IMG/VR virus record: IMGVR_UViG_3300045988_078625
DNA length: 64,000 bases
Direction: 5' to 3' (one strand)
Origin: a virus
Shown here: positions 1 through 45,935 of the stretch, piece by piece
Numbering within the stretch: the first letter of the stretch is position 1
Layout of the letters: every line of letters begins with the position of its first letter
The notes under the pieces: model-generated
The model's input: only the letters and a program-made list of their open reading frames with translations
Told to the model about the DNA's origin: nothing
Database searches by the model: none
Translations under genes and position numbers: made by a program

Positions 1-1518
1 AAACTCCGCTTTATCTGTGGTAGTATATACACTACTTATTTCATTCGCTGCAGTTCTTTGAATAACTACTCCATCTACGTTTGTCCAAATGTCTCCAAAT
101 GGATTATCAAAGCCTCTCCAACGAGGTACTTTAAAAGTATGAGTAGCCACTGTACTAGTTCCATCTGTTGCAGTGCATCCTGGGATAACTAAATCTTTAA
201 CTCCTGTGAAATTACCAATATCGTTACAGTGACCGCATGGAGTAAGAGGATAAGTTCCGTTATATCCAGACCAACTTGTGGCAGAATTACTCCAATCCGT
301 AACTCCGGGTCCAAGACCTCCCTAATGATAACCATCAGCAGTAAGCTCTGCCTCATATGTAGCCTAAGAGTTAAAGTTAGCATATTCTATTACATAATTC
401 CAGTAGAATATCCACTTGTAATATTCGTAACATAGTAATTCAGAACCTGCGTTTGTAGCATAAGTTCTCATTGTGGCTCTGGAAATATTCGTTCTTGGTT
501 TTCCTAAGTCGCTTCTGAAAATATCTTTAGTCTCCAGCTCAGTAGTCAAGTACTCGTCGAACTATGCTCTATTTCCACCTCCTCTAAATGCTGTAGTAGT
601 ATTAACTACTGATACAGCCTTTGGAGTTGCAGATACTGTAGTATCAACTGTGCTTCTATATGCATCAATTAACAATTCCGGTATTTCAACCCAAGAGTCG
701 TCTATCTTAACAGTTGATTCTCTTACCCATCTTTTATTTCCATTGGAACCAGACTTACCATAGAACTTAGGAGTGTTAACCCTAACAGTTCCTTCACTAC
801 CATCAAGCATAGAGGGAGTAGTACCGTCTTCCTTATAAGCCCAATTATCTGGATGTAAGAAATAGTTTATATTAGCTCCATTGGCTACGCATCCCCTATA
901 AGCAGACTGAATAGGAAGTGATTTATGCAGTAACGGGTTTCCAATTCTGGTGAGAACCGGAGAAGATACAGTTATATCCCATTCTACTCCATAGGAGTAA
1001 AGATCTGCGTTACTAGTCATAGCTGTTACCTAACTATCTAAATTTTGCTAAGCTTTCTGAAGTTCTTCCCAAGCCTCATTAAGTGCCTAGAATTGCTAAT
1101 CTAACTTAGTGCTAGAATCTGCCCATTGAGCAGTACCATCATTAGAATAAGTTAAAATCTATCCTGCTGCTCCTCCAGAGGGAATATGTTTGTATCCGGC
1201 TGTAGTTGGGTGTTCATAATTATTTGCACCATCTTCTACACCCTAAAGCTTCTATTTTTCTAATTCAGTATAATTAGCTTCGGAAAGACCTTTTCCTAAT
1301 TCCTTGTCTACTTTTTCGTCTATCTATTCTTTAGTTGCTAAACCACTAATGTCCTAATGTTCTGTTAGGTAGTTTTTATCATTACTTAACTATGATACTT
1401 TAGTCGGAATAGCACTAGATTTAGCATAGATCTCGGCAATATTGTTGCCAGAACCATCATAAGTAGCCTTTAAGTCGTATGTAATTTCTCCTACCTTTAT
1501 AGATTTGATAGCTGCCAT
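1..1518 (-). CDS. Tail fibre protein; the gene's 5' part lies in this window (ATG at 1516-1518) and its C-terminal coding end runs off the left edge; translated with TAG read as Gln
   Basis: Minus-strand frame is continuous through many in-frame TAG (cta) codons. The N-terminal region has the phage tail-fibre collar motif SQLSNDKNYLTEHQDISGLATK. ORF-track fragment 562..1020 is an internal piece. Confidence 0.5.
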
Positions 1519-1519
1519 A

Positions 1520-1729
1520 TTACTATATTATTAAAGTTTCTTCAACTACATCATGATCTATTCCTTCTATGGAAGCAGTTAAGTCCTCAACAGCTTTCTG
1601 AAGTTCTGCTTTAGTAGCATAGTTCTTGAGAGTATCAGGATCTACTCCAGACCCTCCTACACTACCACTAACAACTTTTACAGGCTTAGCAGAGCTTTTA
1701 AACTGTCCGTCAATATAAATTGTTCCCAT
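1520..1729 (-). CDS. Small hypothetical late protein that ends with TAG followed immediately by TAA
   Basis: Matches ORF 1523..1729 (MGTIYIDGQFKSS...). Its ATG overlaps the upstream gene's TAA by one base. Confidence 0.45.
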
Positions 1730-1734
1730 CTTGT

Positions 1735-3603
1735 TTAAAATATTAATTGTTCATTTGATTCATCTACTGATGCACTGCCCGAACCAGGCTATATTGCATC
1801 TATCTTTTTCTATAATTCGCTTACAGCTTCCTGTATCAAAGCTTCTACCTCTGCTTTAGTATAGTACTTTTCAGTAAGATATTCGCTTCTAACATATCCT
1901 GTATCCTATATATCTTTTTCTCCGTAAGTACAGTAATAAGTATCGTTCTCTGTCTTATTATTTTCAACTAGGTTATCATAATCAGTCTAGGGTAAACATA
2001 CTAATTTTGGAACTTCTTCAATAAGAGCAACTTGTTTACCTGATGCTAATAACCTATTATCTTCAGTAGTAAGATTAATAGAGCTTTCAATAGTTTGCTC
2101 TATTACTATATCTCCTGAACTTTCTTCAGTTGTTCCCTATTGTACTTCTTTTTCTACAATTTTCTAAATAGTAATGTCAGAAGTTTCTATCTATTCTGAT
2201 TTTAATAGCTTAGTATTAAATTCTTGGGAAGCAGCAGTCTAATCCTATTGATATTTATTCTAAGTAACAAATATAAAGTCATCATCACCAGTCTCGGGAG
2301 AATCTCCTCTCAAACTATCCTTTGTTACATACTCTTCTGCTATCTATCCAGACAGCTCCGTTAATGACTACTAGGTAGCGTATGTAGATTGAGCATTCTC
2401 TTTTGTAAGAAACTTTTCATCTACCTATTGACTAGTGTAATATGCTTTAATATCTTCTGTAGTAACGTAGCTCCCAAGTTTCTGTAAACCAGCAACTATC
2501 TCATCAATCTGAGATTTTGAGTAGTAGTTGGTAGCTACCCATGACTAATACTAATGAGTAGTATGGTAATTCTAATCTAGATACTCTTTAGTAATATAGA
2601 CTTTAGCGTCATTTGTCACGTCATACACATAATAGTATGTGTCAGGTTCTAGAGTACCATCTTCTACCAGTTTTAAATATTCCTCTTCAGTTAATGTAAC
2701 TAAATTTGGGACATCAGACATCATAGCAAATTGATCTTCTCCAACAAACAATCCGTCTGATTTAACATCTACTACTAGCTAATCCTCTCCTTCAATCACT
2801 GGAGATTTTATCTGTCCCACAGTAATACTTTCCAGGGAACCATCTCCATCTACTTTTAAAGTCTTATCTAATTCGCTCTAGATAGCCTACTAATCTTCGT
2901 CATATTGCTTTTTAGTAACAAAGACGAAATCATCTCCTTCTATTCCTTCCCCTCTAAGACTTTCCTTAGTAACAAATATATCATCTGTTTCCTGTTTAGT
3001 ATAGTGGTTAGACAGAGCTTTAGATAAAAGGGATTCTGGATCTTCCAAATCTAGGTCCGCCTTAGGAGCATAATTAGCAGTTAATTCTTCTAATGTTGCA
3101 TACTTAGAAAGATTCTAAATAGTCTAGTCTAAATCATTTCTAATCTATACAACTGTAGTATTAAGAGCTTTCTGCTTTAACTACTCTTCTATTTTCTTAC
3201 CCCATTCTGCTGATAGGTAAAACTAATTATCGTCTAGGCTGTCCTCATATATATAATAATATGTTTCAGCGTGAAGATATGTTTTATTCTCATCTATTGG
3301 TTTAAAATCTTCTGTAGTATTAGCAGACCATTCTTTATATTCAGCTTCTGTACAAGCTATTATCTGAATAGATTCATAAGACGCTTTCCATCCTTCTTTA
3401 TATTTAATCTTAGACTTATCAATAAGCATATAAATATTTCCGTTATCTATATTAGATACGGTCATGCCCTAATAAGCATATTTCTCTGGAATAGAATATA
3501 GCTCCTCTAGGTTATCAACTACTGTTCTATTATCCAGAGGCTTCGGAGTTTCTACGGTTAAACCAACACCTAGGGTAGCATCACCTGTATATTTAAATGC
3601 CAT
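1735..3603 (-). CDS. Large structural protein of about 622 aa, TAG-recoded, with an internally repeated DDFxFVTxxxY motif
   Basis: My manual reverse-complement translation is continuous through more than 20 TAG codons. Fragment 3223..3465 is internal. The stop is TAA at 1735-1737 and the start overlaps the upstream stop in an ATGA-style junction at 3601-3605. Confidence 0.45.
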
Positions 3604-5192
3604 TATTGTGATAGAATAAAGTTAATTTGGTGAGGTAGTGCTGAAGAGTAGGTATCCTTCTTAGTCCATACTTTATATGGGAATCCATTTATTTGTTCAG
3701 TAGAAGCTTCCCAACCATTCAGATCGACATTCAAATATCCCAATCCTCCATCTACTGTGAAGGAATTTAGCTGAGTATTACTTCCTGGTAGTTTTATAAT
3801 AGCCCTACCGCTTAACGAAAATGTAATAGTGCCAGAAGCCTAATTAAATGGAACTAAAGACTATTTTATTAGCCCATCAGTATTTCCGGAATACCAAGGA
3901 TAAGTAGCTGTTACTTGTGCAGTTGCTGATATAGAACCAGCTTCTACCCTCTTATCCGTGATTTCTCCCTTATTGTTTACTAGGTATTCTCCAGCAGCAT
4001 AGTTTACTGTACCAGAATGAGTATAAACTCCAATAGAATCATATGTAGCAGACTCTATAGGAGAACCGTTATAAGTAATAACTTCTTCTCTGCCAGTTTC
4101 TTCTCCTGCATCATTTTTTACGAAAGTTAAGGTTGGGTTTAGTAATGCGGTTCCTACTTCCACAATTTGGGAAGTAAAGCTATAATACAACTATGGATAT
4201 ATTAAATCTCTGACTACTGTTGGGAATAGTAAAGTATCTATGATTTCATTAAATGGTTTTCCTTTTAATTTTTCAACAGTAGTACCTTCTATAACAGTAG
4301 AAGTTGTATCATCCGGAAGTTCTGTCTAATAGGTAGCTATAGTTTCTAGACTAGTCTAAATATTTGTAATACTCTCACTATTAGTACTAACTTTTTCATT
4401 AGTCTCTTCCTAAGCTTTCTATACTTCTTCTATAGATTTCTAAGCTTCTTCTAACTAAGGTTCTAGATTCTTTACATAGATTCCTGGAAGAGTTATAGTA
4501 GAAGGTTCCCCTCCTTCTTCTGCAGGAGGTAATTCCTATTCAATTAAATGAATAGCATTATCATCCTGCTTAGAAAGAATAACTTCTATAGTATTATCTT
4601 CCTTTATCTCTACAGTCTTAGAGTTCTAAAGATTGTTTTTAATCCAATTAAGAATGTTCTTATCAACGTCTATATTTTCTATAGCAGCATTGATATTAGA
4701 TATTGCCTAATTAATTTCAACTATATCCTAAGACAAGTTATTTAGTCCTTCCCTATTAGTATCAATCTCTCTTTTTAGATCTTCTCCTAATACCTAAATG
4801 CTAGTCCTAATATTACTTATATCAACCTTTATCTCTTCTATTTCCTCAGTATTAGCCTCATACTAACTAATAAAAAACAATGCATAGTCTAATGCATCTT
4901 TTACAGTGTTAATATTCTCTGCAACATCGCTAGTATATGTCCATTTTTGTTCAATATACTAAACTAAGTCTTTCTAGGCCTCTATAGTTCCACTAATGTT
5001 TCCCCAAAGAAGACTCTACTCATCAGCAATTCCTAAGTTTTTTCTAACCTTAGCTCTTTCTAGTTCTGTTCTATATTCTCCTAAGTAATTATCTCTCAGA
5101 AGTGGTATAGGCTCACTTTTTATTAAATGTCCTTTCTTTCCACAAGGCTTTATGTCAGCATTGCTTACCGAAGTGTAAATAGGCTGTATCAT
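3603..5192 (-). CDS. Structural protein of about 529 aa, TAG-recoded, rich in coiled coil
   Basis: Fragment 3861..4190 is internal. Translation runs from MIQPIYTSVSNADIKPCGKKGH to ...INFILSQ and ends in TAA. Confidence 0.45.
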
Positions 5193-5347
5193 TATGATTT
5201 AATAGTTGCTATTTAATAAATTCGTGATTATCTAGTTTTACAGGTAGATTAATAAAACAGATTAAATTCAAAATATCTTGATAATCTGGTCTATATCCTT
5301 TCTTAATTCTTCCAAGAAACTCTTCATACCTTTTAATAGCCTTTCTT

Positions 5348-6079
5348 TTAAGAGCATCCACAACTTATATGTTTATGTCCATGATGGCGAGTATTGCAGA
5401 ATCCTCCACAAGTGCGGAACATTGCTAGCAATCTTTCAGCTTCCATGAATTGTTTAAAGCCTATTAAATAATCTATAATGTTGAGAGTCATCCAAATAAA
5501 ATCTCTGGCAAAAATATCTGCCTCATGTTCATTGGTAACACATTTATTTAGGAGTCCGTCAAATAATTTTTTACAATAATTAATATAGCACTATTGCAAA
5601 TTCCCTGTAAAGAATACATCTACCTTACACTTCTTGATAGTAGTGCCTTCTATGTTTCTTTCTAGAATTTCCTTTACCGTACACTCTTCTAACTCTCCTT
5701 CTACTTCTTTATATAGTTTCTCCCCATCTGTAACATAGATAGTTTCGTAGTATTCCTTATATTCATCAGATGAATTTTCATACCACTTCATATTAGGAAG
5801 TATTATATGATCTACCACATAATATCCATCCTCTTTTACTTTAAATGTACATGAATCTAAATCTTCTGTATGGTCATTTAAAAGGACATCTATTAGTGTG
5901 GCATCCCCTATACTTACCTTGATGATAGTATTTAGAGTAGCACTCTCACTATACTTATAAGAGTCGTAAGAAGTTACTACTTCTAAATCTTCATCAATAT
6001 ACTATCCATATTCTTTAGAGAAGTCTTCAATAGTTATTTCCCCAGTAATCTGGGTATGTATATCAATACTAAATTCCAT
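5348..6079 (-). CDS. Hypothetical late protein with a C-terminal Cys/His cluster, TAG-recoded
   Basis: Fragment 5591..5818 is internal. The C-terminus reads CGGFCNTRHHGHKHISCGCS and ends in TAA at 5348-5350. Confidence 0.45.
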
Positions 6080-6948
6080 TATTGTATAATTGACATCAAA
6101 TGAGGACCGTGCCATCTAACGTTATTTTCATCACTATTCAATACTCCGTTTACTGATGTTGCAGTAATCATCCACATTTTTCCAGTAAAATTATCTGGAG
6201 TATCGCTAGACCACTAACTTCCAGGATCGTCACTTGTAGTATTAACAGCTGGTTTATCTCCAGAAGTAATGGTATATCGTAACTCTAACTAACTGTCAAA
6301 TGCCCACCTACCGTATTGAGCTGGTTCAGAATATCTTTTCCATAATCCTTCTACTCTCTTACGTGTTGATATAAATACATATGGAGTAGCTGGACCAATA
6401 CTAACTGGAGTTTCTGACCAGCCTTCTGGTAATTTATTGTCAAAGGCAGTCAAATCTTCCTAAGTATTTCCTTCAGAGTCTAATATAGGATCTCCATATC
6501 CATCCTTTAGTATTGGATAAGTAATAACTGGTGCAACCCCAGTTGATCTTGCAATATAGATATTCTGAATTTTCTCAGCAATATCTGTAGCAACAATTTC
6601 GTAAATCTCATTAAGTTTAGCAGTGTCTCCTTTATACGTGTATAGAGTTTTCTTCCAAACATACGGTCTTTCTGAGTCTGGTAGTTCAAAAATATCACTC
6701 CATGTTGACAACTTTTTTACTTCGGATTCATCTTTGGTATTTGTTTTACAATAAGTAACTACTACCATGATATTACTAGCTGCTTCCGAGTCCCCACTTA
6801 GTTCTGAGACCTTTTTCCATAATTTTACAAGGTTGTCTTCTACATCTGACTTACTTCCAGAAGCATTACTAATTACCACCTCTGCATGAGAAATGGGATA
6901 TATTTGTTGCTAATCTTTATTATATACTATTGTACCTGCTGTAGCCAT
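6079..6948 (-). CDS. Hypothetical structural protein, TAG-recoded
   Basis: Fragment 6460..6879 is internal. The gene starts with MATAGTIVYNKDQQQIY two bases after the portal stop. Confidence 0.45.
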
Positions 6949-6949
6949 A

Positions 6950-9124
6950 TTAATGTATTTGTCTTACTTTATCGTTATATGGATTTCCGTCATGAAGCTA
7001 TGCTAACTCTATTTCAGTTCTCTTCTCTTCAATATCCATTTGTCTATCTTTGTAAGTAGAATCAGACTGAGCTTTAAGCCAATTAACCTTATACTCTAGT
7101 TGCATCTTCTACTGTTCTAGTCCAAGTTTTTGTTCGTCTAGCCTTTCTATTTTCTACTAAGCTTTCTCCAATTCCTATTGTAGTTGTTGTGCTTGCTATG
7201 AAGTTTCTTCCAACTTCTACTACAACTATTGTAATTGATTGTTCTCTTCTTTCTAAACCTGCATAGCTTTTTTAACCTTGTACTTTAAGTCTGTCAAACT
7301 CTTAGCTGTTAATGCTTCAAAAACTATACCAGCATCCATTTGCTAACTCTTAAGGAACTCCGGAATCATAGCTTTAATAGTCTATAAATCTTCCATAACT
7401 TCAGTGCTGGAGGTTATATGAATGTCAAAATCAGTCATTGTGAAATATTCAGGAAGGGCAGTAAATATCTACTAATACTTATCTCCCAATATAATAGTTC
7501 CAGTTAACCCTTTCTTGTAAGTTACTTTAGCCTAATTAAGACTATCTAATAATATTTCACAAGTTATCAAGTCCATTTGTTGGAAATAGTGTTTAGTTAC
7601 TATATAAGAGTTAGCGACTCCTTGCTTAATATTAGTTACAGCATCATGAGTCTCTATTCCATTAAGTCTTTCCCTAAATACTCCAGTTATAGATGATGTA
7701 GTCTATTCTACTGATTGAATAGCTAACTCAATAGCCTATACAGCCTACGCTTTAAGGGTGTCATCAAATCCATTAAAGATAGTATTTAAAGGAGCGTTTC
7801 CATTGTCATTTCTACCCTCCTAAGTAGTATCAACCCACTGAATACCAGCTTTTTTATAAGCTAGCCATTTCTATACTCTTTCTGGCCAATGTACTCCTAA
7901 GTTAGTAGGAAGTAATGACATATCCATAATAACTCCTGAGGTTCCACTATTAGCTATCAAGTTGTCTCTGTAATAGTTAAGTAAGTCATATCTATCCTGT
8001 AGATGTGCACACTTAAGTATTAAAGAATATGGCTACTGAGAACGATTTAGAAAATAAACTCCATTTACTGATAATGAACAAGAGTTAGGATCGTCTTTAG
8101 ACCTCATTGCAGTCTTGTCTAATCCTCTAAGAATATAGATTTCCTCTCCTATTCTTATAGTATTGTATCTCTGCATTTTGAAATCATCATCAGTCTCTAT
8201 CCACTCTACATCGTAGACCGGAATTAACTAAAATCTATGAGCACTATATTCATTATCTGGATACCCAGGAATGGTCTCATGATTTTGATCTTCATTAACC
8301 ACTGTACAAACATCTCCATAAACTCTTCTGTATACAGCAGCAGAATCATCTGCTCTCCATTCATCTTTTAACCTCTTTAAGTCTTCCCTAGATATTTCTT
8401 TACCATACTTAGCTAGTATTTGGCTTTTACTCATCCATTTTCTAATAACAACTCTATATGATTTCTTGACATATGGAGATTCTGGATTTCTATCAACAAA
8501 CGTATTTAATGGGTTAAGAACCTCTATCTCCACATTAGTTCCGGAGAAAGAAGACTTTACTCTAAAGAATGTGTATCCAGTAATTAGTAAGTCAGTTAAT
8601 AACTACCGCAACTTAGTAATAAGATCAGTTTCCCTAGATTGCATTAGGTAGTGAATAATGTTCTGCGCAGCAATTTCATACTGAGAAATGAATGACTAAT
8701 CAATATCCTATATAACCTTATCTAGCTGAGTCTTTACAGCTTTATCAGTAATATCTTTTCCGTCAATAAAGCTTAAGATAGCATTACTTAAGTGATCTTT
8801 TAAAAACTTAACTATTCCTTTAGTTATCTCTAGCTATTTTTCTCTGGTTATATTACTGATAGTATCTGAATCTTTGCAAGAGACTTTCGGGAGTATTGGA
8901 GTTCCTAGATATTCCCCTACTAAAGCATCTACATGCTTCTTAAGTAGTGGTGTAAATTCTACTGATGTAGGACTGCCTATTCCAAAATTCTCTTCAAGAT
9001 AGCGAAACTATTCTGGATCTCTTTTACCATTATAATAATTATAAGCTTTCTAAAGCTCATATTTATCATACACAAGTTCCGCAATAGCCTCGTTTGTTTT
9101 GTCTATCAATTCTTTCTCTTTCAT
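6950..9124 (-). CDS. Portal protein of about 724 aa, TAG-recoded
   Basis: Sits immediately downstream of the terminase large subunit. Fragment 8228..8533 is internal. Size and position match a crAss-like portal. The C-terminal tail is very Gln-rich when TAG is read as Gln. Confidence 0.5.
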
Positions 9125-9321
9125 AACATGTATTATGTTGTTCTGGAGGAAGCTTAGTGGCGTTATAATACTTAACTCTCTATAACTTCCTACTTCTTAA
9201 TTCTTCTTTAATAAAAGGCAGAAATTCATCATCGGGTAAATCAGCTATGATTACTAATGGCATCTCAGACCTGTCAAAGTTAAAAGATATTTTGTAACCA
9301 ACTGGATTCAAATCCTCAATC

Positions 9322-11682
9322 TCAAGTCCGCCTATATATTCCATTTGGTATAAGTCTCTCATATACTCTAGGATCACTTGTTTCAATTCTGTATGGGTCA
9401 TCGTATTCATCGTCTTGCATATTTAATTCTGGAGTTTCGCTAGTTGGTATAACTCCAAATCTTTTTATTCCTCTCTCATCGTAATAATAACCAAAATCCC
9501 TGAACAATTCAACTTCTTTTTCCACAACTATAGGTTGTCTTCCTGATAACTCTTCGTCTGCTAATTCTGTCATACCCATAGCTGCTATAATATCGAACTT
9601 ACCTTTATTCTCGTCATTATATCCAGTAAGCTATTCCAACATTTCTTCAAACCATATAGTATGACAATAATCTTCCACAAACGCAGCAGTTAGATCAGTG
9701 TGTTGTTCTATAATAGTTTTAGTAGCTGGAGTTCCATACTATTTAGTAGTTCCATTTTTAACATCAGTAAGAGTAGCTCTAGGACGTTTCATAAAGTAAT
9801 TCAAACATTTCTTTTCTCTAGCCCAGGTAATCATACCAACACGAGTTGCTTCTATATTTACCTTACAGTTGTAGTATCTAAGTAAACACATAGCTATTTT
9901 GTAAGCCTCTCGAATGTCTCCAGGTCTGTCCTTATACATTGCTACATACTATGGCTCACTCATACCAAATGCCCTTCTCTTAATAGTTATACAGAAGTCA
10001 GAAGGATCTTTAGTTTCCTTCGAGGTCTAATTAGCTCCTATATCAATACCGTCTATTCCTGCAATATAAAGATTATGCATTTCTTTATATACAGGTGCTT
10101 CAAATTCCTCTCCTCTTTCCTCTGCTTCCTATCTAAGTTTATCCATCTACTCCTTATATAGGTCAGACCATACTGGATGTTCCAGAATCTTTACCTTTCC
10201 CTTAGTATTAGGAATCCACTTAAATCCATCAATGTTATCAGCAGTGTGTTTATTATTTTTATAGAAGTAATCTATATAACCACATTCTGGTCTGGGACCT
10301 ATTTTCTTTAGTCTTATATTAGCTAATTGATCAGAAATAAGAATTTTGTTAAACTTGTTAACACCTTCTAGATTGAAGGCTTCTTCTGCATTCCAACAAC
10401 GTTCAGCACACTTCTTTAAATAGTCATCGGGTACTGCTAATAGATTATCTCTTTCTTCCTACAGATACTTCTTATATTCTACGGTATTACATACGCCTCT
10501 ATGATCCATGTATTCGGAGTTCAAAGACTGTACAAAATATGGAATAAAGAATCCACTCTCAATAGTAGTCCCATCTTGAGTATAATTATGTCTAAAGGGA
10601 AGAACTTTGTAAGCTTTTGGATTATAGTAAATCTTTTTAAGACCTGCTAATGGAGCACCCATATCACCACCAGTACCTCCAAACAACATTGTTCCACGAG
10701 GCTTACCCTAGACTTCACAAAGTTCTTGTCCTTGTACCACAGCAGTATCTAATCCTGGCCAAGACCCTGCTTCGTCATATATTAATAAGTCAACACGGTC
10801 TCCACGAATATTAGATGGTTTAGCTCCATTTATTCCTACTACTTCTGATTTAAATCCAACATCTTCAAACTATCCGTTTACTTTAACCTACTTACCAGAC
10901 TTCTTTCTTAAATCCTGGTCAATTAGACGAAGCTTAAAGAATCCTCCACCTGTGCAAGTATTTAAAAATGTTAGAGCATTATCAAACTTACTAAATGTAC
11001 CTTTAAGGAAGGTATCATTAAAGCAAGTAATCATTACTCTACTTCTTCTAATTACAGAATACATACGAGCGGATAGTGAGGCATTTATTTCTGAGAATCC
11101 GATTGAACGAGCCTTCATTAAAGCTGCATGTCTATGTAGTACTCTAGCCATTTGTAAGTAATGGAAGAACATGTAATGGGATGCAAAGAATATAGGGAAG
11201 TCACTATTAGTTCCTTCACCGGATGCTTTATTATCATCAATAATAGGAAGCTAATAGAAATTTAAGAAGAAATAGTTATCTCCAGTAATAGTATAACCAT
11301 TAACTGTCATTCCATATTTACATCTTCTGTACTACTCTTTCCAAAATTCATTGTATCTCTTACTGTCTTTTAAGTAGGGACAATACTTCCCAGTCTTTCT
11401 GTATACTTCTCTGGTTTCGGTGAACCATTCGGGATTAAAGTCCAAACCATGCGTTTCATCAATAGGTCTATAGCCAGTTATCTCATAAGACAAAGTAGGG
11501 TCAAAAACATCTATCTTGTCTCCTTTCTTGACGTCCCAATAGTCTGCACTTTTGACCCTTTCTTCTCTTATTTTCTATACTAGCTCTCTTGCCTCTACAG
11601 CATCTTCTTTATGTTCTTTTTCTCTTACCTAATCTACTATAGTCTATAGTTCATCAGGTAATATCTTTTTCTTTCTTGGCAT
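9322..11682 (-). CDS. terL: Terminase large subunit of about 786 aa, TAG-recoded
   Basis: Fragments 9322..9579, 9739..9939, 10459..10689 and 10888..11172 join into one frame through TAG. The ATPase region contains LLIYDEAGSW as a Walker-B-like motif, and the C-terminal RNase-H-like nuclease region contains IAGIDGIDIGANQ. The real stop is TGA at 9322-9324. Confidence 0.65.
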
Positions 11683-11684
11683 AA

Positions 11685-12245
11685 TTAAAATTCTCCAGGA
11701 TCAAAACCATCTGTAGCCCCTCCTCTAACGGTAGACTATTCAGTAAGTTCTTTTTTAACCTCATCTTCTAATGTAATTAATTCTTCGTGAACTTTATGAA
11801 GGCTAGCCATTTCCTTCATTACTTTCTCAGCAGAGAATACTGGCTTTCCACTAGTGTCACGTTCATTTAAGTCTACAATAGTATCGAAGTAATCAATAAA
11901 CTAGTCAGCAGCTCTTCTAGCAGCTTCTAATAATTTAATTGATTTATTTGAGTCCTATAATGCTCTATATTTTCTACATGCTTCCCTAAATATCGGATCA
12001 TTAAATTCTGATTCTGTTAATCCAGAATCATTAATTGCTTCATCGTGCCTTTCATATTCAGAGTACTAGCTATACGGACTCTTCCAATCAATAGCTAAAT
12101 AAATGTATGATAGTTCTCTAATTGCTCTATCCTTTTCCACAGATTTATCTCTTTGCAGTAAAGCTTTAAACTCTTTAACTAGAAGAATCTCTGGTTCATT
12201 TATTTCTAACTATTTAGTTAAAGTGTTATAGTTAAATACATTCAT
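11685..12245 (-). CDS. Putative terminase small subunit or packaging protein of 186 aa, TAG-recoded
   Basis: Lies directly upstream of terL with its stop two bases before the terL ATG. The identification rests on position only. Confidence 0.35.
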
Positions 12246-12278
12246 AATCATTAATCATTAACATTCGACAATCTTTTC

Positions 12279-13493
12279 TTACTTCTTCATTTTAGAGCCA
12301 CACTTGCTTACTTTCATTTTAGAGCCACAAGCATCCTTTTTAGTATATTGCTTTCTATCAGGAACCCATTTTCCCTTTTGGAAGTTTCCTTTATGTCCTT
12401 TATTAGACATGGTTTCCTAATCATTATATTTATTAATAGATATAGAATCTCTGGAAGCTTCATCTTTCGCTGATTTCATATCTTTCTTATACTGTGCTCT
12501 TCCTTTCTTAAATTTGTCTACCTCGTTACCTTTTACCTTAGCACCTTTCTAAGCTTTCTGGCAGGCTTTACAAATTCTACCTCCTTGTTTAAAATAAACA
12601 AGTTCTTCCCCTTCTGGGCAAACTCCTTTTAATTTTTTATAGTACTCAAGCTTAGCTCCTAATCTAGCCATAACTCCACCTTGCATTTTTTGCATAAATT
12701 CCTGGTATTTGGCTTTAATTCCGTCTTCTCCTAATTGCTGAGCATATTGTTCTAAATCCTACTCAGATTGTAATTGTATTCCTTGTGCTGCGGCATCCTG
12801 TATTAAGTATGCCATAAATGCTTTTTGTAATTCTTCCTAATTAGCCATTGCTCCTCCTTGTTGATATTTAACTCGTTGCTATCTAGCAGTTGCCTTTGGT
12901 ATATGTTCCCAACTTCTCTAATTTTTGAGCTATTCTGGAGTTAGTTTCTGCCCATACATATTAGTTGTAGGCGGCTTTATCCATTGTTCTTGGATAGTTC
13001 CAGTATGCTCTCCAGTTTCCTAGTCTACTTGATTTTGGTACGTAGTAGCTCTTTTTCCGTCTTGACTATATGTAACATAGGGATTATTCATTACTGGAGT
13101 TCCTACCTCTACTGTTGCTTTCTTTCCATTAGCTAACTATGTTCCATACACTCCTTTCCCCCATTTGAATTGAGTTAGTCCTCTCTTTCTGGCTTCTCTA
13201 AATGCTGTACCAAACCCCTAGACTCCTCTTAAGTCGTCGTTTTGAATTTGTTGCTAAGGTGCATTTATTTTCTTAGGAATAGTAGGAGTAGACGGCTTTA
13301 ATCCTAATATAGGTTTTTGTTGTATAGCTGGCACAGCACTTCTTTTCTTCTACTATGCAGTATTTCTAATAGAGTTCGGATTACTTTGCCAAGTCTAATG
13401 CAACTGTTGTAAAGTTCTTCCGTCTAACTCTGCGTCTCCATATATAGTCTTGATATGCTACATTAACTCTGGATCAAATTGTATTTTCGCCAT
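12279..13493 (-). CDS. Gln-rich hypothetical protein of about 404 aa with CxxC pairs, TAG-recoded; the first gene of the recoded block
   Basis: Manual translation starts MAKIQFDPELMQHIKTIYG and ends ...CGSKMKK with TAA, passing through about 25 in-frame TAG codons that read naturally as Gln. Confidence 0.5.
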
Positions 13494-13703
13494 TATTCTT
13501 CTACTTTAATTAAGTCTTTTGTATTAAATACTGCTTCTTGCATCAGTCCAGAATCAGTAAACCATCTACATCTAAGTCCGCGCAATCCCTGGTTATCTTT
13601 AAATAATGCTGATTCCCTTCTCAGAACAAGCATTACTGGAGAATGCATTACCTTACACTACCGTAAAGTAACACAATCCCCAGGTTTGAAATAAACTTTC
13701 TCA

Positions 13704-14429
13704 TCAATTGTTTCCATCCTCTCTAAGTAAATTAATTCCTATCTTTTTGTATTCCATCCAATTCTTTATTCTCTCAGGTAAGCTATCTCCAAGCTCTTTT
13801 GGGATCTTATCTATATCTACATTTATACAGTCTTGAGATTGCTTAATTTGGTCTCTCCTTTCAGTTAGTTTCTCATTAACTACAGCCATGATTCTATTCT
13901 CATTAACTACTACGAATCCTAGTTTGTAAAATGGAACCATACATTCACTAGCTATAGTATAGAATACAATATCACCAGGCTTTAAGAACTCACACTTGTG
14001 GCCTACCTCTACTACAGTACCTACCTTGATAAACTGTTGTTCTTCCTCAATTTCTCCAGTCTCGTTAGACTTGTATGTTGGAGCAAACCCTCCTAAGTCT
14101 GTAATTAATCCTGATTTAGTAGTCTTAATTTTTTGGAATGGGTTCTGTTCAAACGGCTTGATAAGAGCATACCCATACATAGGCATAATCTCTACACCAT
14201 TCATATCTTCTGATAATGAATTAGCATAATCCTCTAAAGCTTTATTATGTTTTGAGAATTTATCTTTTATTTCATCTACCGCTGTATTAAATCTTTCTTG
14301 TTTCTCTCTAAGTAATGTCTTATCTGCAGCTTCACCATTTAAAATAAAGTGTTCTCCTGTTCCTTCCATTCCGGTCAAAGATAAGGCTAGTTTCTCGTTA
14401 CTGTTTAATTCTGTTCTTAAATTTTCCAT
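13704..14429 (-). CDS. Protein with an N-terminal coiled coil and a C-terminal GroES/Cpn10-like domain, possibly a co-chaperonin
   Basis: Complete standard-code ORF ending in TGA. The C-terminal segment GLITDLGG...VGTVVEVGH...KPGDIVFY...NENRIMAVV resembles the GroES fold. Confidence 0.5.
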   Translation of the reverse strand: MENLRTELNSNEKLALSLTGMEGTGEHFILNGEAADKTLLREKQERFNTAVDEIKDKFSKHNKALEDYANSLSEDMNGVEIMPMYGYALIKPFEQNPFQKIKTTKSGLITDLGGFAPTYKSNETGEIEEEQQFIKVGTVVEVGHKCEFLKPGDIVFYTIASECMVPFYKLGFVVVNENRIMAVVNEKLTERRDQIKQSQDCINVDIDKIPKELGDSLPERIKNWMEYKKIGINLLREDGNN

Positions 14430-14437
14430 AATTCATT

Positions 14438-14755
14438 TTACCATTTACATAAATCACAATGTTCATCTTCTATTCTAGTTTTATTCTCTAATATACAACC
14501 ACATTCCTCACATACTTCTCCAACAGAAGTATATAACTTGTGAGGACAAGTATTACAAATCTTTAATCTCTTGGTTGCTAAATCTTGATTTATTCCGAAT
14601 ATATTAAAATATATACTCTTTAATATTGTTAGAGGCTTAGTAAATATTGCCTTAATCCATTTTTCTGTCATATCTTCTCTACTTTCTTCTTTTGTTTCCT
14701 GATAAGTAAGTACATAAGCCTTATCGGGTCTATACAGCACGGGAGTTCCGTACAT
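14438..14755 (-). CDS. Zinc-finger protein
   Basis: Part of ORF 14438..14821, with the start moved to an internal Met that overlaps the upstream stop. Contains CNTCPHK...CEECGC. Confidence 0.4.
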   Translation of the reverse strand: MYGTPVLYRPDKAYVLTYQETKEESREDMTEKWIKAIFTKPLTILKSIYFNIFGINQDLATKRLKICNTCPHKLYTSVGEVCEECGCILENKTRIEDEHCDLCKW

Positions 14756-14970
14756 TACCATTTCCCTGCAGGACAATGTTTTTTCTCGTTTGGAATCTTC
14801 TTCTCTAGTAGACATCCGCATCCTTTTATATAACCTTCTTTTGGTCCTATACTTATATCATTATTTTTTGGATTTAGATATAAATTTCCATTACATAATC
14901 CATTATCTTGGTCGCATATAGGACATCGTCTACATATTTTCCACCGTTCTTCAATTTCTTCTAATGTCAT
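14755..14970 (-). CDS. Small zinc-ribbon protein
   Basis: Contains CRRCPICD...CNGN...CGC...HCPAGKW. Confidence 0.45.
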   Translation of the reverse strand: MTLEEIEERWKICRRCPICDQDNGLCNGNLYLNPKNNDISIGPKEGYIKGCGCLLEKKIPNEKKHCPAGKW

Positions 14971-14972
14971 AA

Positions 14973-15887
14973 TTAATATTCAATACGTTGACGTTTTCTT
15001 TTGTTTTCAGCTAGTACAGATTCTTTTTTATAAAACAATAGCATTCTAATTACTTCATCTTTTAGGTAAGGTAGATGATATACTGTCATATTATCACTAT
15101 GATCAAAGTGAACTAATACTAAATCTTCAATCTCAAACTCCGGATTCTTTTTTTGTATCATCCAGGCGTAAGTACTTAATTGAAGTGCATAATGCCAATA
15201 ATTAACATCATCTAAATTATTTAGAGGATATTTCATCTTAACTGATGATTTGGTTTTAGAATTAAAGAAACTCTTGGTTTCTATCTTCTTATTAGTTTTC
15301 CAGTCTCCTATAATTATCTTATTACCTCTTTTAACTAGTAGGTCGATTTGTCCAGCTATTCTAAGTTTTCCATCTTCCGATACTCTAGATATTAAATACT
15401 CAGGATATACCCCATTCTCTAAATCTAATTCATTATGGTCTTTTACACACTCAAACTTACCACCTATTTGATATTTACTAAGGTCTATGTTCTTCTTCTT
15501 TTTGTAAAAAGAGTTTTCTAAATCTGCATGAATCTTAGTTCCTCTTTCGCAAGAGTTCCTATTCTCTAAATCCCACGCATCTAAGATAGCTTGTTGTTCC
15601 TTATTAAACTCGTCTTCTGTAATGTTATGAAGCTCAAGTAGAACTTTGTCAAATTTCTTAGTATTCAGTAATGACTTTTTCTCAATAGCCCAATCTTCTT
15701 TAGACAGAAGTTTCTCTAATGCTTTATAGGCTGACCAGAACTCTTTGTCAAAGGGTTGGGTGAAAGAATGTATTAAAGTCGTCACAGATATAAATTTCTG
15801 TTCAGGCTCTGTAACATCATAATAAATATGAGCCTCCTCCTCGAAAGCTATGTTCCCATTTTGTTTTGTAATTTTACTTTTGTCCAT
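14973..15887 (-). CDS. Nuclease of the PD-(D/E)xK superfamily
   Basis: Contains GQIDLLVKRGNKIIIGDWKTN, which fits the D...D/ExK motif. Confidence 0.45.
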   Translation of the reverse strand: MDKSKITKQNGNIAFEEEAHIYYDVTEPEQKFISVTTLIHSFTQPFDKEFWSAYKALEKLLSKEDWAIEKKSLLNTKKFDKVLLELHNITEDEFNKEQQAILDAWDLENRNSCERGTKIHADLENSFYKKKKNIDLSKYQIGGKFECVKDHNELDLENGVYPEYLISRVSEDGKLRIAGQIDLLVKRGNKIIIGDWKTNKKIETKSFFNSKTKSSVKMKYPLNNLDDVNYWHYALQLSTYAWMIQKKNPEFEIEDLVLVHFDHSDNMTVYHLPYLKDEVIRMLLFYKKESVLAENKRKRQRIEY

Positions 15888-16002
15888 TAGTCATAATTCA
15901 TTTAATCATTTATCACATTTATCTATATTTATTTGATACTTTTCAAGTATATTAATATTCTTTGTAAGACACAAATCAATAAATAATACATTATATTAAA
16001 AA

Positions 16003-16344
16003 TGTCTAACAGTAGAAAAATTACAACATTTGGATGTCCTATTTTCAAGAATGGATCAGGCATTCATATTAAGAAAGAGAACAGAGGCAAATTTACAGCC
16101 TCGGCTAAAGCTGCAGGAGAATCAGTACAAGAACACGCTACAAAGGTATTAAATAATCCTAAAGCTACTCCGCTTTAGAAGAAGCGAGCTAATTTTGCTA
16201 GAAATGCTTCTAAATGGAAACACGAAGACGGAGCTAAGATACATAAACCAGGAGGGCATAGGTCTATATTAGATAATGGATGGATTCCTACTACTAGATT
16301 AAAGAAAGGAAATTATGGATTTATTAAAACTAAGAAACGATGAA
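16003..16344 (+). CDS. Candidate Lys-rich basic protein of 113 aa with a single in-frame TAG at 16177-16179
   Basis: Runs from the ATG at 16003 to a TGA at 16342-16344 with one TAG in between. Each half is under 60 aa, so it is missing from the ORF track. It lies between two minus-strand gene blocks. Confidence 0.3.
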
Positions 16345-16612
16345 AAACATTATTAAGTGCATTAAAGAGATTGTATTGAGAATATATCTGTATTTACTAT
16401 TTATATTTAAAAAGTAACATGGACTATAACAAAGCAACTTTACATGCAGCTACTGGTCGTACTCTACTACTTCCAGGCTGGAAGGGATATTTTTATTGGG
16501 ATTATAATAAATAGGAATTGAACTTTAGAAATGGGGATTATCACTTGGATAATAAATAGCTCCGAGAAAAAGGAGTTATGGAGAGAACTGATTGGTATTA
16601 TATCATATAACA

Positions 16613-16650
16613 AAATAGGCGAGCCTAGAGATTAGGTTCGCCTATTTTTA
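16613..16650. terminator. Bidirectional intrinsic terminator
   Basis: The hairpin is AATAGGCGAGCC...GGTTCGCCTATT. It is followed by a T-run on the plus strand and by an A/T-rich tract in the minus orientation, and sits directly 3' of the minus-strand gene 16648..16863. Confidence 0.5.
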
Positions 16651-16863
16651 TTTAATTTTTGCATTATAAGTACAAGTGATTCTATTTATATCATCCCACC
16701 AAGGTTTATCCGATGGTTGTCTAATATTACTTGGAATATTTATTGTAGAAGTATAAGTTTCTACTATAGCATCTAGTATTTTGAATAATGTATCCAAATC
16801 AAATTCTGGAAATTCATCATGTAAATTTGTTAATGTCTTTTTAAAGTCTATCATATCCTTCAA
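16648..16863 (-). CDS. Hypothetical small protein
   Basis: ORF in the track, standard code. Confidence 0.4.
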   Translation of the reverse strand: MKDMIDFKKTLTNLHDEFPEFDLDTLFKILDAIVETYTSTINIPSNIRQPSDKPWWDDINRITCTYNAKIK

Positions 16864-17080
16864 ATGTATTATTAATTATAGCTTTTTCTATTGTGGTATC
16901 TTTATATAGTCCGTTCTTGATTATATTTCTAACGGAGTTATCAACTACATTCCATATATCAATTAGTAAGGATTTATTTTCCGGAAGGCTTTTTAAAATG
17001 CTTTCCAAATAACTAGCCTTTACCATATTTAATAATTGTCCATTAATTAGGACTTCAAACTTAAATTCCCTATCCCACAT
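16841..17080 (-). CDS. Hypothetical small protein
   Basis: ORF in the track. Confidence 0.4.
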   Translation of the reverse strand: MWDREFKFEVLINGQLLNMVKASYLESILKSLPENKSLLIDIWNVVDNSVRNIIKNGLYKDTTIEKAIINNTFEGYDRL

Positions 17081-17245
17081 ATTTAATGTGTTACACTTAA
17101 TTCATTTAGTCTATCTAAGTAATCCAGAAACCATTGTTCATTTTGTCTTCCATTTTCCTCAATATCTTCAATAATGGTTTCAATAAGCACTAGTGTTACT
17201 TTTGCTAAAGATTCTACTTTTGGATTAGTAAGTTCGTTATATCTC

Positions 17246-17560
17246 TCAATCAACTCTTTCATAATCCCTCCAGTCTTTGTTATACTTTTTAATATGTTCT
17301 AGGTCTGGATAGATACTTACTATACTCCATCCCGTTTTTGGGTTTATAAAACGGTAAAGTTTTGATTCTTCTATTTTCTCCTCTTCTGGATTTCTATTTA
17401 ATGTTCTATTCCAGTAGCTGTATTTTTCATCTAACATATCCATATCACATTCCTCTAATATTTTCATATTAGGGTTATTCTTTATTTTATCATATTTCCT
17501 TTTTAAGTTGGAAACCTTGATAACATCATTACCATTCAATACAACTGCGCATTGCTTCAT
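17246..17560 (-). CDS. Hypothetical protein
   Basis: ORF in the track. Confidence 0.4.
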   Translation of the reverse strand: MKQCAVVLNGNDVIKVSNLKRKYDKIKNNPNMKILEECDMDMLDEKYSYWNRTLNRNPEEEKIEESKLYRFINPKTGWSIVSIYPDLEHIKKYNKDWRDYERVD

Positions 17561-17784: not shown

Positions 17785-17801
17785 AGCTATTAATTTTGGA
17801 G

Positions 17802-17873
17802 TTGCCCTACTAGGATTCGAACCCAGACTAAATGATTTAGAGTCATCTGTGCTGACCATTACACCATAGGGCA
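17802..17873 (-). tRNA. Amber-suppressor tRNA with anticodon CUA, derived from a Gln tRNA
   Basis: Acceptor stem TGCCCTA/TAGGGCA, D-arm GTGT-AATGGTCA-GCAC, anticodon stem GATGA/TCATT with loop CTCTAAA, T-arm CTGGG-TTCGAAT-CCTAG. The overall architecture is almost identical to tRNA-Gln(TTG) at 33537. Confidence 0.75.
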
Positions 17874-18841
17874 GTATTTATTTCTCCTTTAGAGATTTGT
17901 TTTCTTCTGTTAGTCTCTCTAGTTCTTTCTTTAGCTATTCATTTTCTTGGAATAATGCTTGCATAGTAGTATTCAAGTTAGCAAGAAGTATTCTTATTTG
18001 AGCTATTTGTTCATACATTTAGCAATGATTTTAAATATTCAATTTGTTGATTAACTAATTTTGATAGAGCTTCTCTAAACTTAGCAATCCCACTTCTTAC
18101 TGTTTCTAATTTACCACTCTCTAAACATGCTTGTATTCTATGAATATTATCTTCTCCCAAATATTCACATACTCCTACAAATAAATCATCATCTAAAGAT
18201 TCTAGATATTTTTGGAATGTATCTGCTTCCTTGTTCGCTAAACAACTTTCTTCTTCCTATCTATCATAGGATATTAATAAGAATAGAGAATCATCAGTAG
18301 ACTCTGATTTAATGGTGAGTCCTTTTTTTGAACAATAAAACTCTTGATTCTAATTAATTGCTTTAACGAGTTCTTTAAACTCATCCTAATTTAACAAAGT
18401 TTCTAAGTCTGTAATCATAATTGTTTTCTTTTTAGTTATATACAACAATAAGCTCTCAAAAGTTAAACGCAAAGTTAAAAAATTCTAATTCCAATATTAT
18501 ACATATTTCATTTAGTTACTGGCAAACAAGTACCGGTACTTTATATAAATAGCCCCCTGGGGTTAAAATAAAGTCCGGATTTTTATAGAGAAGGTGCTGA
18601 CCTATATTCCGAAAATTATAAGAGTGAGTGTAGTTACGGTCCACAACCCCCTTAGTCCCCCCCTGTATATTGATATAAAACTAAAAATAAAATAACTATG
18701 TACGAAGAAGATTTATTAAACGAGTATGATTACACATTGGCGGAAGTTTTAAGAGAAGTAAGTTATTACAACTTTTACGATAATTCAGCTTTAGTGTGTT
18801 AAAAAACAAAAAACAAGTATAAACCTTTAAATTTTACAGTT

Positions 18842-19291: not shown

Positions 19292-19297
19292 AAGATT

Positions 19298-19319
19298 GGG
19301 GAGAAATCCCCTTTCTTTT
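19298..19319 (+). terminator. Intrinsic terminator
   Basis: Hairpin GGGGA-GAAA-TCCCC followed by TTTCTTTT. Confidence 0.55.
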
Positions 19320-19342
19320 AAATACAAATAGTCTTTGTAGTT

Positions 19343-19543: not shown

Positions 19544-20265
19544 GGTATTATGGGTTTCAAAATAAAATACCCACATGAACTCCATCATCGGACCATTGGT
19601 TAACGGAGAAAACAACAAAACAAAACAAAAACTTCAAAATCAATTCGTCGTAGTTATTTTATTTTAGTATTATATTAAGTAATGTGGTTCTAATGTAGAT
19701 TGGGACTATTGTTGCACGTGAAAATATGGTAAGGGTTGAGAGAAATTGTCCACTAAAAAGACAGCCGATTTTCCGACTTTTTCCAGTTTTCAAAAAATCG
19801 CCAGTAGGATGAGTTTTATAACACATACTACAATGATTATTTACTCTAACATTTGCCTATAAAAAGGTAACAAAAAGCGGGTTACGCAGAAGAACCCAAT
19901 ATCCGAAAATAACTGCTACGATTGTAATGTGTATATTCGCAAACTTGAACACTATTACAAGAGGATTGAGCCATATGAATGGTCACTTATGGCAATATTA
20001 CAAAGTACCACTGATATGCTGGTAGACCAAAGTATATCACCTATAAGTATTCGTATGTAATATTGGAAGTTGCCTGAAGTAAGCCATCAGATAGATATAG
20101 GCTAGATAGTAAGAGAGACGCTCATAAGGCGTCATTTTCCATCTCGAATCTATTCGCAAGTTTTGAGATTAGCTACCTCAGAATTTAGTGAACGTTGATA
20201 ACGTTGTATGTCTGGAAAACATACTAAATAATCTCCTATCTTATACTAGTTGTCAAGATAGGATT

Positions 20266-20336
20266 TCCCCATTAGTATAATGCTATTGCGCCTTCCTCTA
20301 AAGAAGGAGATTCTGGTTCGAGTCCAGAATGGGGAA
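20266..20336 (+). tRNA. Amber-suppressor tRNA with anticodon CUA
   Basis: Acceptor stem TCCCCAT/ATGGGGA, anticodon stem CCTTC/GAAGG with loop CTCTAAA, T-arm TCTGG-TTCGAGT-CCAGA. The D-stem is short at 3 bp. Confidence 0.65.
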
Positions 20337-20624
20337 CTTGGTATTTGAGGACTACAACTACTTGTAGACTCTGTTGCAGTTAAAGATTATAATGGGTACG
20401 CCCTGAGACTAATGCAGAGCATCTCTTATGAATAGAGGTGTCTTATCGTGAGATAAGGCAAAGTATTGTGAGATTGTACTAACAATCGAAGACAATCTTA
20501 AATGATTGTAGGCACAGGATAATTCATCTTCTTTTATCGTACATAGTGGTGCAGGTTGTTGAGAAACAATTGTGCATACTGGGAGACTTAGGTCTCCTAC
20601 TCCCAAGATAAGAACAACCGTTAC

Positions 20625-21017: not shown

Positions 21018-21509
21018 ATGAATACATTAGCATTAGATCATGTAAACAAGCGCGCAGAATTCGTAATGTCGTTTACTATTCCTTTCAAAGCAGTTGAAGA
21101 TCCAACGTCGCAGGCCAAGTGCTACAGTCCGCATGAAGTAATTATGGCATGGCAAGAGGTATGCATCAAAGCATTACGAATGAGAATCGATGCTTGTATG
21201 GAAATGTTGTTCCGCAACAAGGACAGAGTGATAGGCTCGGACGAACGTGGCGTTTTGTTTAAGAAGAAGAATGGAAATATTCACCACTTTTCTCATGCTA
21301 GCTGTTTTGCTATGGAGGCTTTCATAGAGATATTGGAAGAAGCAGAGAGTGCTGGGGACATAACTTTCGATGCTCTTCAAATACAGCAACTGATGAAGGC
21401 TTTGTACTGGATTCCAGATGAACTGAAGAACGATCATCAGGGAATAGGTTTTGGAGAACTAATTGACTGCTTGCTCTGCATTTTTAGCAACTCTCTGATA
21501 AACGAGTAG
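21018..21509 (+). CDS. Hypothetical protein that ends with TAG
   Basis: ORF in the track. The stop is TAG at 21507-21509, followed by a palindromic hairpin at 21510-21530. Confidence 0.45.
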   Translation: MNTLALDHVNKRAEFVMSFTIPFKAVEDPTSQAKCYSPHEVIMAWQEVCIKALRMRIDACMEMLFRNKDRVIGSDERGVLFKKKNGNIHHFSHASCFAMEAFIEILEEAESAGDITFDALQIQQLMKALYWIPDELKNDHQGIGFGELIDCLLCIFSNSLINE

Positions 21510-33536: not shown

Positions 33537-33608
33537 TGGGCTATGGTGTAATGGTTAGCACTACAGATTTTGATTCTGTCAGTCTAGGTTCGAATCCTAG
33601 TAGCCCAA
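33537..33608 (+). tRNA. tRNA-Gln(TTG)
   Basis: Anticodon arm ACAGA-TTTTGAT-TCTGT. This is the structural template from which the suppressor tRNAs appear to derive. Confidence 0.7.
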
Positions 33609-33721
33609 CTAAATACAGTCGTTGAGGAGACTCGACCTTGCGTACTTAGAGTCGGTAAAGTCAGCTGAATAAATCCGATGCGGTACTATCCACGAATAAT
33701 CGAACAGGCGTCTACAGAATA

Positions 33722-42543: not shown

Positions 42544-42628
42544 CTACTATCGCCCAAAGGACGATAAGTATGGCGAGAGACTTGTTCTTCTAATCGCAAT
42601 GCCTGAAGTTGCGCACTCTACTTGCGGA

Positions 42629-45658: not shown

Positions 45659-45935
45659 GGATATACTAGGGCATGAGGTAAGAGGTACTAATACTTCTTA
45701 CTATGGTATCTCCGCACTACAAGCTGTTATTGACCACGACGAGATTCGTGCGGATATAGCTAAATATTTATATAAAGACTGCACAACGCACGAGGGACAT
45801 GAAGGAATAATTATAGGATTTGAGGACAATAACCAGTTCTTTGATTATTACTACATTGTTTACATCCCTGAGCTCAACAAGGTTGAGTATCAGCTCTGCA
45901 ATGATGCAGAATTTACAAAATCTATCAAGATATGA
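45633..45935 (+). CDS. Hypothetical protein
   Basis: ORF in the track. Confidence 0.4.
   Translation: MVITTAYDKDILGHEVRGTNTSYYGISALQAVIDHDEIRADIAKYLYKDCTTHEGHEGIIIGFEDNNQFFDYYYIVYIPELNKVEYQLCNDAEFTKSIKI

Follow-up and report, generated by a model that had tools for sequence, protein, structure and literature searches.

Introduction

Amber recoding, in which the stop codon TAG is read as an amino acid, is a feature of the late genes of the Zeta group of crAss-like phages, whose genomes span 145-192 kb (PMC7886860, PMC12386605). Metaproteomics has confirmed that TAG is read as glutamine (Gln) in crAss-like phages (PMC9523058). In the timing model published for phages that switch codes, standard-code genes come first, suppressor transfer RNAs (tRNAs) accumulate, and the recoded late genes follow (bioRxiv 10.1101/2021.08.26.457843). 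This study analyzed a 64,000-nt stretch of the virus IMGVR_UViG_3300045988_078625 (hereafter the window), in which 64 of approximately 185 kb is visible, together with a comparison set of 44 related loci (numbered with the prefix L; L001 is MT835470.1). An original prediction for the window had proposed that TAG serves as a sense codon, most likely for Gln, in its late structural and packaging genes on the minus strand; it did not mention suppressor tRNAs with a CUA anticodon. The present analysis shows how TAG is partitioned among the genes, that it stands for Gln, which suppressor tRNAs the phage carries and what they descend from, and that the gene layout holds throughout the lineage. We regard it as highly probable that this phage uses two genetic codes, with early genes in the standard code and late genes in which TAG means Gln and is read by the phage's own suppressors.

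TAG as a sense codon on the late strand

Under the standard code, the minus strand from 1 to 13.7 kb contained a single open reading frame (ORF) of at least 150 amino acids (562-1029), in agreement with the scarcity of long standard ORFs that had been predicted for the first 13.5 kb. When TAG was treated as a sense codon, ten long ORFs appeared on the same strand, tightly packed end to end and encoding long, coherent proteins, and no comparable gain was obtained by making TGA or TAA sense. About 11 genes were resolved in this way. All late genes that were traced terminated on TAA or TGA, as predicted. The read-through proteins were searched against phrog profiles, a check proposed with the original prediction, and the terminase large subunit (TerL), the portal, and the tail protein were matched across the profile length. 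These matches arose only from the read-through proteins.

Several details of the original prediction required correction. It had listed seven positions at which minus-strand frames break; all seven are indeed CTA on the plus strand, but two are not in the implied frames. Position 1523 is out of frame and lies upstream of the ATG of the tail gene at 1518, and position 9180 belongs to a separate ORF (9066-9410) and not to the portal gene. About 25 TAG codons had been counted in the gene at 12279-13493, where we found 15, although the quoted peptides EqLKNq and ANqEELQKAF (q, TAG) were correct. Nor is 13493 the limit of the recoded block, which opens at 13717 in a 74-aa gene containing one TAG, and a further recoded gene is located at 18011-18418.

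The same picture might be expected if the late block consisted of decayed pseudogenes, or if its stops were artefacts of assembly or sequencing. However, the frames are broken only by TAG and never by TAA or TGA, the genes are full length relative to the profiles, and the same pattern is present in 44 independent assemblies, including copies that are 99-100% identical. Decay or artefact thus has next to no probability and is effectively refuted.

Partition of TAG between gene sets

The density of TAG was tabulated gene by gene, which the original prediction had also proposed. The late genes contained 127 in-frame TAG codons among 4,302 codons (2.95%; 13, 27, 18, 2, 4, 28, 15, 5, and 15 per gene in window order), and TAG made up approximately 53% of their Gln codons. 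By comparison, none of the 11,591 codons of the 78 plus-strand genes was an internal TAG, and the minus-strand genes at 13704-17560 were likewise free of it (0 of 855 codons). Out-of-frame TAG was frequent in all three gene sets.

The strands diverge near 18.5-18.8 kb, where the sign of the GC skew flips. From this point, the late strand runs from a lightly recoded 135-aa gene through a suppressor tRNA gene (Sup1) and a TAG-free nuclease-like module into the TAG-dense packaging and structural block. Both this order and the partition of TAG were the same in every related locus examined (44 loci). The nuclease gene and the adjacent 241-aa gene had no TAG in 44 of 44 loci, whereas TerL carried 9-24 and the portal gene 13-36. 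The partition of TAG is therefore strict and conserved throughout the lineage.

If the host itself used code 15, in which TAG is Gln, the phage would drive no switch at all. Against this possibility, approximately 45 kb of plus-strand genes contain no in-frame TAG, eight genes terminate on TAG, and the phage carries two suppressor tRNAs of its own. In addition, the hosts that have been predicted for recoded gut phages are organisms with the standard code (bioRxiv 10.1101/2021.08.26.457843; PMC12386605). We consider a code-15 host exceedingly unlikely.

Amino acid assigned to TAG

We compared the window with L001, whose TerL is 44% identical to that of the window. No TAG was present in any orthologous gene of L001, which is therefore a standard-code relative. 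Opposite 50 TAG codons of the window, L001 carried Q in 17 (34%), and the share opposite the CAA and CAG codons of the window was also 34%. In a likelihood test with substitution profiles estimated from the same alignments of the window with L001, Gln was the best fit for TAG, with a lead of 20 log-likelihood units over Lys, 26 over Glu, and 86 over Tyr.

Comparisons among the recoded relatives pointed in the same direction. At conserved TerL positions, TAG was exchanged with CAA and CAG; because TAG and CAA differ in two bases, exchanges between these two are not simple one-step mutations. In the 74-aa gene, the motif LRq (with TAG) of four recoded phages corresponds to LRQ in L001. The Gln content of TerL was 3.2% when its 15 TAG codons were added to its 10 CAA/CAG codons, compared with 3.8% in L001, and that of the portal protein, TAG included, was 7.7% compared with 6.3%. 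Gln content agrees with L001 only when TAG is counted. A tally over 120 database TerL homologs, which had Q at most TAG sites, was rejected as evidence because these homologs had themselves been called with TAG as Q; their stored proteins are irreproducible under translation table 11. The likelihoods, the codon exchanges, the Gln content, and the two Gln-derived tRNAs described below support Gln as the best-fitting assignment by a wide margin, in line with the residue originally predicted.

Suppressor tRNAs and their neighborhood

The window contains two tRNA genes with a CUA anticodon, Sup1 and Sup2 (Table 1), both of which form canonical cloverleaves and loops under a general tRNA model. Sup1 is 77% identical to the tRNA-Gln(UUG) of the phage and has in common with it the D arm, the T arm, U1-A72, and A73. 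The Sup1 anticodon was CUA in all related loci, and its sequence was identical in 32 loci, counting the window. At the Sup2 site, the anticodon was CUA in 21 loci including the window, the ochre-type UUA in 8 (L011, L014, L016, L022, L024, L040, L042, and L044), and CUG, a Gln anticodon, in L043; three further loci (L019, L021, and L036) had an aberrant anticodon loop of 6 or 8 nt. The body of the CUG tRNA was nearly the same as that of the CUA versions. Because of the likeness of Sup1 to tRNA-Gln(UUG) and the presence of a CUG version at the Sup2 site, both suppressors are traced back to tRNA-Gln. The relatives with a UUA anticodon showed no in-frame TAA and no shift in stop usage; TAA was the terminator of 81% vs 80% of late genes, and their ORFs were intact when TAA was read as a stop.

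These findings bear on whether TAG might be read as another residue or ambiguously, either because Sup1 and Sup2 are charged differently or because the residue is pyrrolysine. The identity of Sup2 is no higher than 45% with the tRNA-Gln of the phage and 56% with Sup1, the identity set that an E. coli-type glutaminyl-tRNA synthetase (GlnRS) recognizes in the acceptor stem is incomplete in both tRNAs, and E, K, D, and N also align with TAG at variable positions. Nevertheless, no other amino acid comes closer to Gln than 20 log-likelihood units, Sup1 has its arms in common with tRNA-Gln, and the Sup2 site bears a Gln anticodon in L043. Pyrrolysine would also fit poorly with the canonical D and T loops of both tRNAs, which are unlike those of tRNA-Pyl, and no pyrrolysine machinery (pylS/pylBCD) was detected among the proteins scanned. 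The metaproteomic identification of TAG as Gln in other crAss-like phages (PMC9523058) argues in the same direction, and a residue other than Gln is in our view very improbable. The label tRNA-Pyl, which ARAGORN gives by default to a CUA anticodon, was rejected as an identification, and the canonical D and T loops speak against it.

A RAGATH-14 RNA, matched at full length, ends 28 nt upstream of Sup2. This adjacency of RAGATH-14 to the Sup2 site was found in five of six relatives tested, whichever anticodon the tRNA carried. A pattern search of IMG/VR found RAGATH-14 in 18 loci, and a tRNA lay directly downstream only in three of this lineage; phage contigs of approximately 100 kb with the same RAGATH-14 core had no tRNA after the RNA. 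The link between RAGATH-14 and the tRNA is thus specific to this lineage. No mention of RAGATH-14 was found in the literature searched.

The arrangement of the two tRNAs would allow a two-step switch, in which Sup2 is made first and permits read-through of the 135-aa gene, polarity is thereby relieved, and expression of Sup1 and the late operon becomes self-reinforcing. Sup2 heads the early strand behind RAGATH-14, and full translation of the 135-aa gene directly upstream of Sup1 could relieve transcriptional polarity. The Sup2 site, where CUA, UUA, and CUG occur among close relatives, would then be the evolvable part of the switch, and Sup1 its invariant part. The scheme is weakened by L003, whose 135-aa gene has no TAG, and by L043, whose tRNA at the Sup2 site reads CAG, and we regard it as a long shot.

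Apart from the suppressors, ARAGORN identified 25 tRNAs on the plus strand at 25466-49732, and Rfam added tRNAs at 38542-38622 and 40503-40575, so that the window has 27 (ARAGORN) to 29 (adding Rfam) tRNAs. All tRNA genes inspected were without an encoded CCA end. A transfer-messenger RNA (tmRNA) of 517 nt, which ARAGORN missed, was identified by Rfam (RF00023, 68 bits; gathering score, 47) at 42030-42546 on the plus strand. The tmRNA could help to rescue ribosomes that run off read-through messages during amber suppression.

TAG terminators and backup stops in early genes

A TAG terminator was present in 8 of the 78 plus-strand genes. In these genes, the next in-frame TAA or TGA followed within 1-9 codons (median, 3), whereas the next TAA or TGA in genes ending on TAA or TGA lay further on (median, 10.5 codons; mean, 24.7 codons). 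The difference in spacing was significant in a one-sided Mann-Whitney test (p = 0.0013), with the small number of TAG-ending genes as its limit, and bears out the backup stops that had been described behind the TAG-ending early genes. In the Zeta phage Lera, too, TAG terminators are reported to be followed by a backup stop (PMC12386605).

Affiliation of the phage

At the protein level, four IMG/VR contigs, with lengths of up to 178.6 and 185.4 kb, matched the window with 99-100% identity, which indicates that the same phage is already public. A megablast search of window positions 1-20000 against INPHARED phages gave no match, and relatives were reached only by protein-level search. In a tblastn search, TerL was 25-31% identical (E ~1e-25 to 1e-35) to many annotated crAss-like terminases, and no annotated phage group other than crAss-like was among the top matches. 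The same-species and related contigs are 178-195 kb long; GC is about 36%, which is a further likeness to the Zeta group.

Inteins or introns in conserved genes were observed in relatives only, and none was seen in the TerL or portal gene of the window itself. The TerL of P0003 contains the intein domains Hom_end and LAGLIDADG, that of L043 and L045 is split or expanded, with TerL regions that reach approximately 3.5 kb, and the portal gene of L003 and L005 is split around an inserted ORF. Reverse-transcriptase (RT) genes are located close to the tail genes in L004 and L006. The match with the Zeta group is based on genome size, tRNA load, the inteins and introns of the relatives, the RT genes near the tail genes, and the amber recoding of the late genes. 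The window is part of a crAss-like gut phage of approximately 185 kb whose genome features are consistent with membership of the Zeta group. The major capsid protein, integration host factor (IHF), the conserved uncharacterized structural genes, and the giant RNA polymerase were not recognized in the 64-kb window, for which no dedicated test was made; copies of them, if present, would be located elsewhere in the genome. The TerL homology and the agreement with the published Zeta group bear out the crAss-like, code-15-type recoding that had been proposed.

Gene content of the window

The features of the window are listed in Table 1. The 114-aa gene at 9066-9410 shares ~90 nt with the end of TerL and ~60 nt with the start of the portal gene. 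Its protein is conserved in the standard-code L001 and in L003, L004, and L005, and it is an annotated gene in L003-L005. The assignment of the 304-aa protein to the PD-(D/E)XK nucleases is based on faint or weak PDDEXK_1 matches, obtained on orthologs. The 135-aa gene is parted from the main recoded block by approximately 4.5 kb of TAG-free genes. On the plus strand, auxiliary genes at 31022-32986, 54832-55656, 53378-54394, and 56788-58350 encode two SPFH/Band 7 proteins, an OmpA-like outer-membrane protein, and a nicotinamide phosphoribosyltransferase.

Table 1. Features of the window in order of position, with the number of in-frame TAG codons in protein-coding genes
Feature	Position	Strand	TAG	Remarks
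Tail protein gene	1..1518	-	13	Cut by window edge; ATG at 1518; phrog_5302, 1e-56
622-aa late protein	1735..3603	-	27	TAA end; orthologs in L002 and L003
529-aa late protein	3603..5192	-	18	TAA end; weak tail-protein match, phrog_788, 5.5e-5
255-aa late protein	5348..6115	-	2	Ortholog in standard-code L001 without TAG
289-aa late protein	6079..6948	-	4	
Portal	6950..9124	-	28	TAA end; phrog_6547, 1.8e-47
Small conserved gene, 114 aa	9066..9410	-	1	TAG at 9180-9182
TerL	9322..11682	-	15	TGA end; phrog_6681, 8.3e-63
188-aa protein upstream of TerL	11685..12251	-	5	phrog_16390
404-aa Gln-rich protein	12279..13493	-	15	35 CAA/CAG in addition
74-aa conserved gene	13493..13717	-	1	First gene of main recoded block
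TAG-free module	13704..17560	-	0	241-aa, 127-aa, and 304-aa PD-(D/E)XK nuclease-like genes; small ORFs
Sup1, CUA tRNA	17801..17873	-		ARAGORN; Rfam tRNA, 66.3 bits
135-aa conserved gene	18011..18418	-	3	Directly upstream of Sup1; orthologs with 0-4 TAG
RAGATH-14 RNA	20065..20237	+		Rfam RF03145, 166.3 bits
Sup2, CUA tRNA	20266..20337	+		ARAGORN; Rfam tRNA, 56.5 bits
Early gene	21018..21509	+		Ends on TAG; backup TAA 8 codons on
tRNA-Gln(UUG)	33537..33609	+		Window tRNA closest to Sup1
Early gene	41165..41743	+		Ends on TAG-TAG-TAA
Glucosaminidase-domain gene	45932..46426	+		PF01832, 4.5e-14; ends on TAG; backup TAA 4 codons on

Discussion

Auxiliary, replication-related, and tRNA genes make up the plus strand and, together with the nuclease module of the minus strand, follow the standard code. 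TAG stands for Gln in the minus-strand genes for packaging, portal, and tail (1-13717) and in the gene at 18011-18418 on that strand. We propose that the two CUA tRNAs, presumably charged by the GlnRS of the host, compete with host release factor 1 (RF1). Following the published model, the early genes would be translated first by the unmodified host machinery, and only when the suppressor tRNAs had built up would the late genes containing TAG be translated in full. Virion production would thereby be tied to the code switch. In the few early genes with a TAG terminator, the close backup TAA or TGA codons would keep read-through in check.

Several observations weigh against this proposal. The assignment of genes as early or late is derived from gene content and strand, and that of TAG to Gln, for this phage, from comparisons of genes and tRNAs. 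G3-C70 is an identity element of GlnRS in E. coli. Sup1 has C3-G70 instead, although the enzymes of Bacteroidota may differ from that of E. coli. Suppression must be very efficient to pass the 28 TAG codons of the portal gene. A search of the 20 largest plus-strand proteins, in the 64 of ~185 kb that is visible, revealed neither a release factor nor GlnRS or another aminoacyl-tRNA synthetase, nor an anti-RF1 or other code-change protein. Moreover, the protein with a glucosaminidase domain, possibly a lysin or cell-wall hydrolase, is encoded in the standard code, which is at odds with the specific view that recoding is aimed mainly at lysis genes.

The recoding could also be real without serving as an adaptive timing device, in which case the suppressors would mainly disturb host translation or counter host defences, and neutral drift from CAA/CAG to TAG would take place in whichever genes are expressed after the suppressor has become abundant. 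Non-recoded Zeta clades keep CUA suppressor tRNAs, for which a role in host sabotage has been proposed (PMC12386605). The free exchange of TAG with CAA and CAG at the same sites between close relatives is a near-neutral pattern, and the tmRNA encoded by the phage would also suit this explanation. Against it stands the complete absence of TAG from the nuclease module and the early genes in 44 of 44 loci, whereas neighbors on the same strand have dozens. However, purifying selection that removes TAG from genes expressed early would leave an identical distribution, so that drift and regulation are not told apart by these data. We consider neutral drift unlikely, and the use of two codes with a late switch remains the reading that we favor.

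Amber recoding of late genes in large crAss-like phages is already known, having been published since 2021; the near-identical contigs in IMG/VR and the published amber recoding of the Zeta group place the present finding within that knowledge. Our additions are modest and comprise a second suppressor on the opposite strand, the turnover of its anticodon, the adjacency of RAGATH-14 in this lineage only, a phage tmRNA, and statistics on backup stops. Annotation of the window with translation table 11 destroys the TerL, portal, and tail genes, so that the late strand must be translated with TAG as Gln. The phage is a further well-resolved case of two codes within one genome, and its internal controls are unusually clean: a module without TAG lies on the late strand itself, one relative uses the standard code, and 44 related loci are available for comparison. 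The paired Gln-derived suppressors, the turnover of the anticodon at one site, and the backup stops could help the study of efficient suppression.

Comparison with known systems

In the E. coli suppressor supE (glnV), a tRNA-Gln has its anticodon changed to CUA and inserts Gln at UAG, and this suppression is weak and tolerated by the host. The CUG and CUA anticodons at the Sup2 site of relatives represent the same kind of single-base change. In contrast to supE, suppression in this phage must suffice for up to 28 TAG codons in one gene.

The code-switching phages Lak, Garnet, Amethyst, Jade, and Sapphire and the crAss-like phages of ~105 kb (bioRxiv 10.1101/2021.08.26.457843) resemble the present phage in having standard-code early genes, suppressor tRNAs of their own, and structural genes that form one recoded unit. 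The present phage differs from them in that neither release factors nor aminoacyl-tRNA synthetases turned up when the 20 largest plus-strand proteins of the visible 64 kb were searched, in that its glucosaminidase-domain gene is written in the standard code, and in that a TAG-free nuclease module separates the main recoded block from a lightly recoded gene of the same strand. The code-15 crAss-like phages (PMC9523058) are alike in using TAG as Gln in structural proteins; those are other crAss-like genomes studied by proteomics, whereas this phage is known from its genes.

The present phage agrees in many features with the Zeta crAss-like phages (PMC7886860, PMC12386605). The genomes are similar in size (178-195 kb here and 145-192 kb there), both have tRNAs that include CUA suppressors, and in both only the late structural and packaging genes are recoded with TAG. 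The inteins or introns in the TerL and portal genes of the relatives and the RT gene near the tail genes are further points of likeness, as are the rare TAG terminators backed at once by another stop, which recall the Zeta phage Lera. In the Zeta table of 2025 (PMC12386605), each amber genome has one CTA suppressor, whereas the lineage described here carries a pair of CUA tRNAs that differ in sequence and lie on opposite strands, one of them behind a RAGATH-14 RNA.

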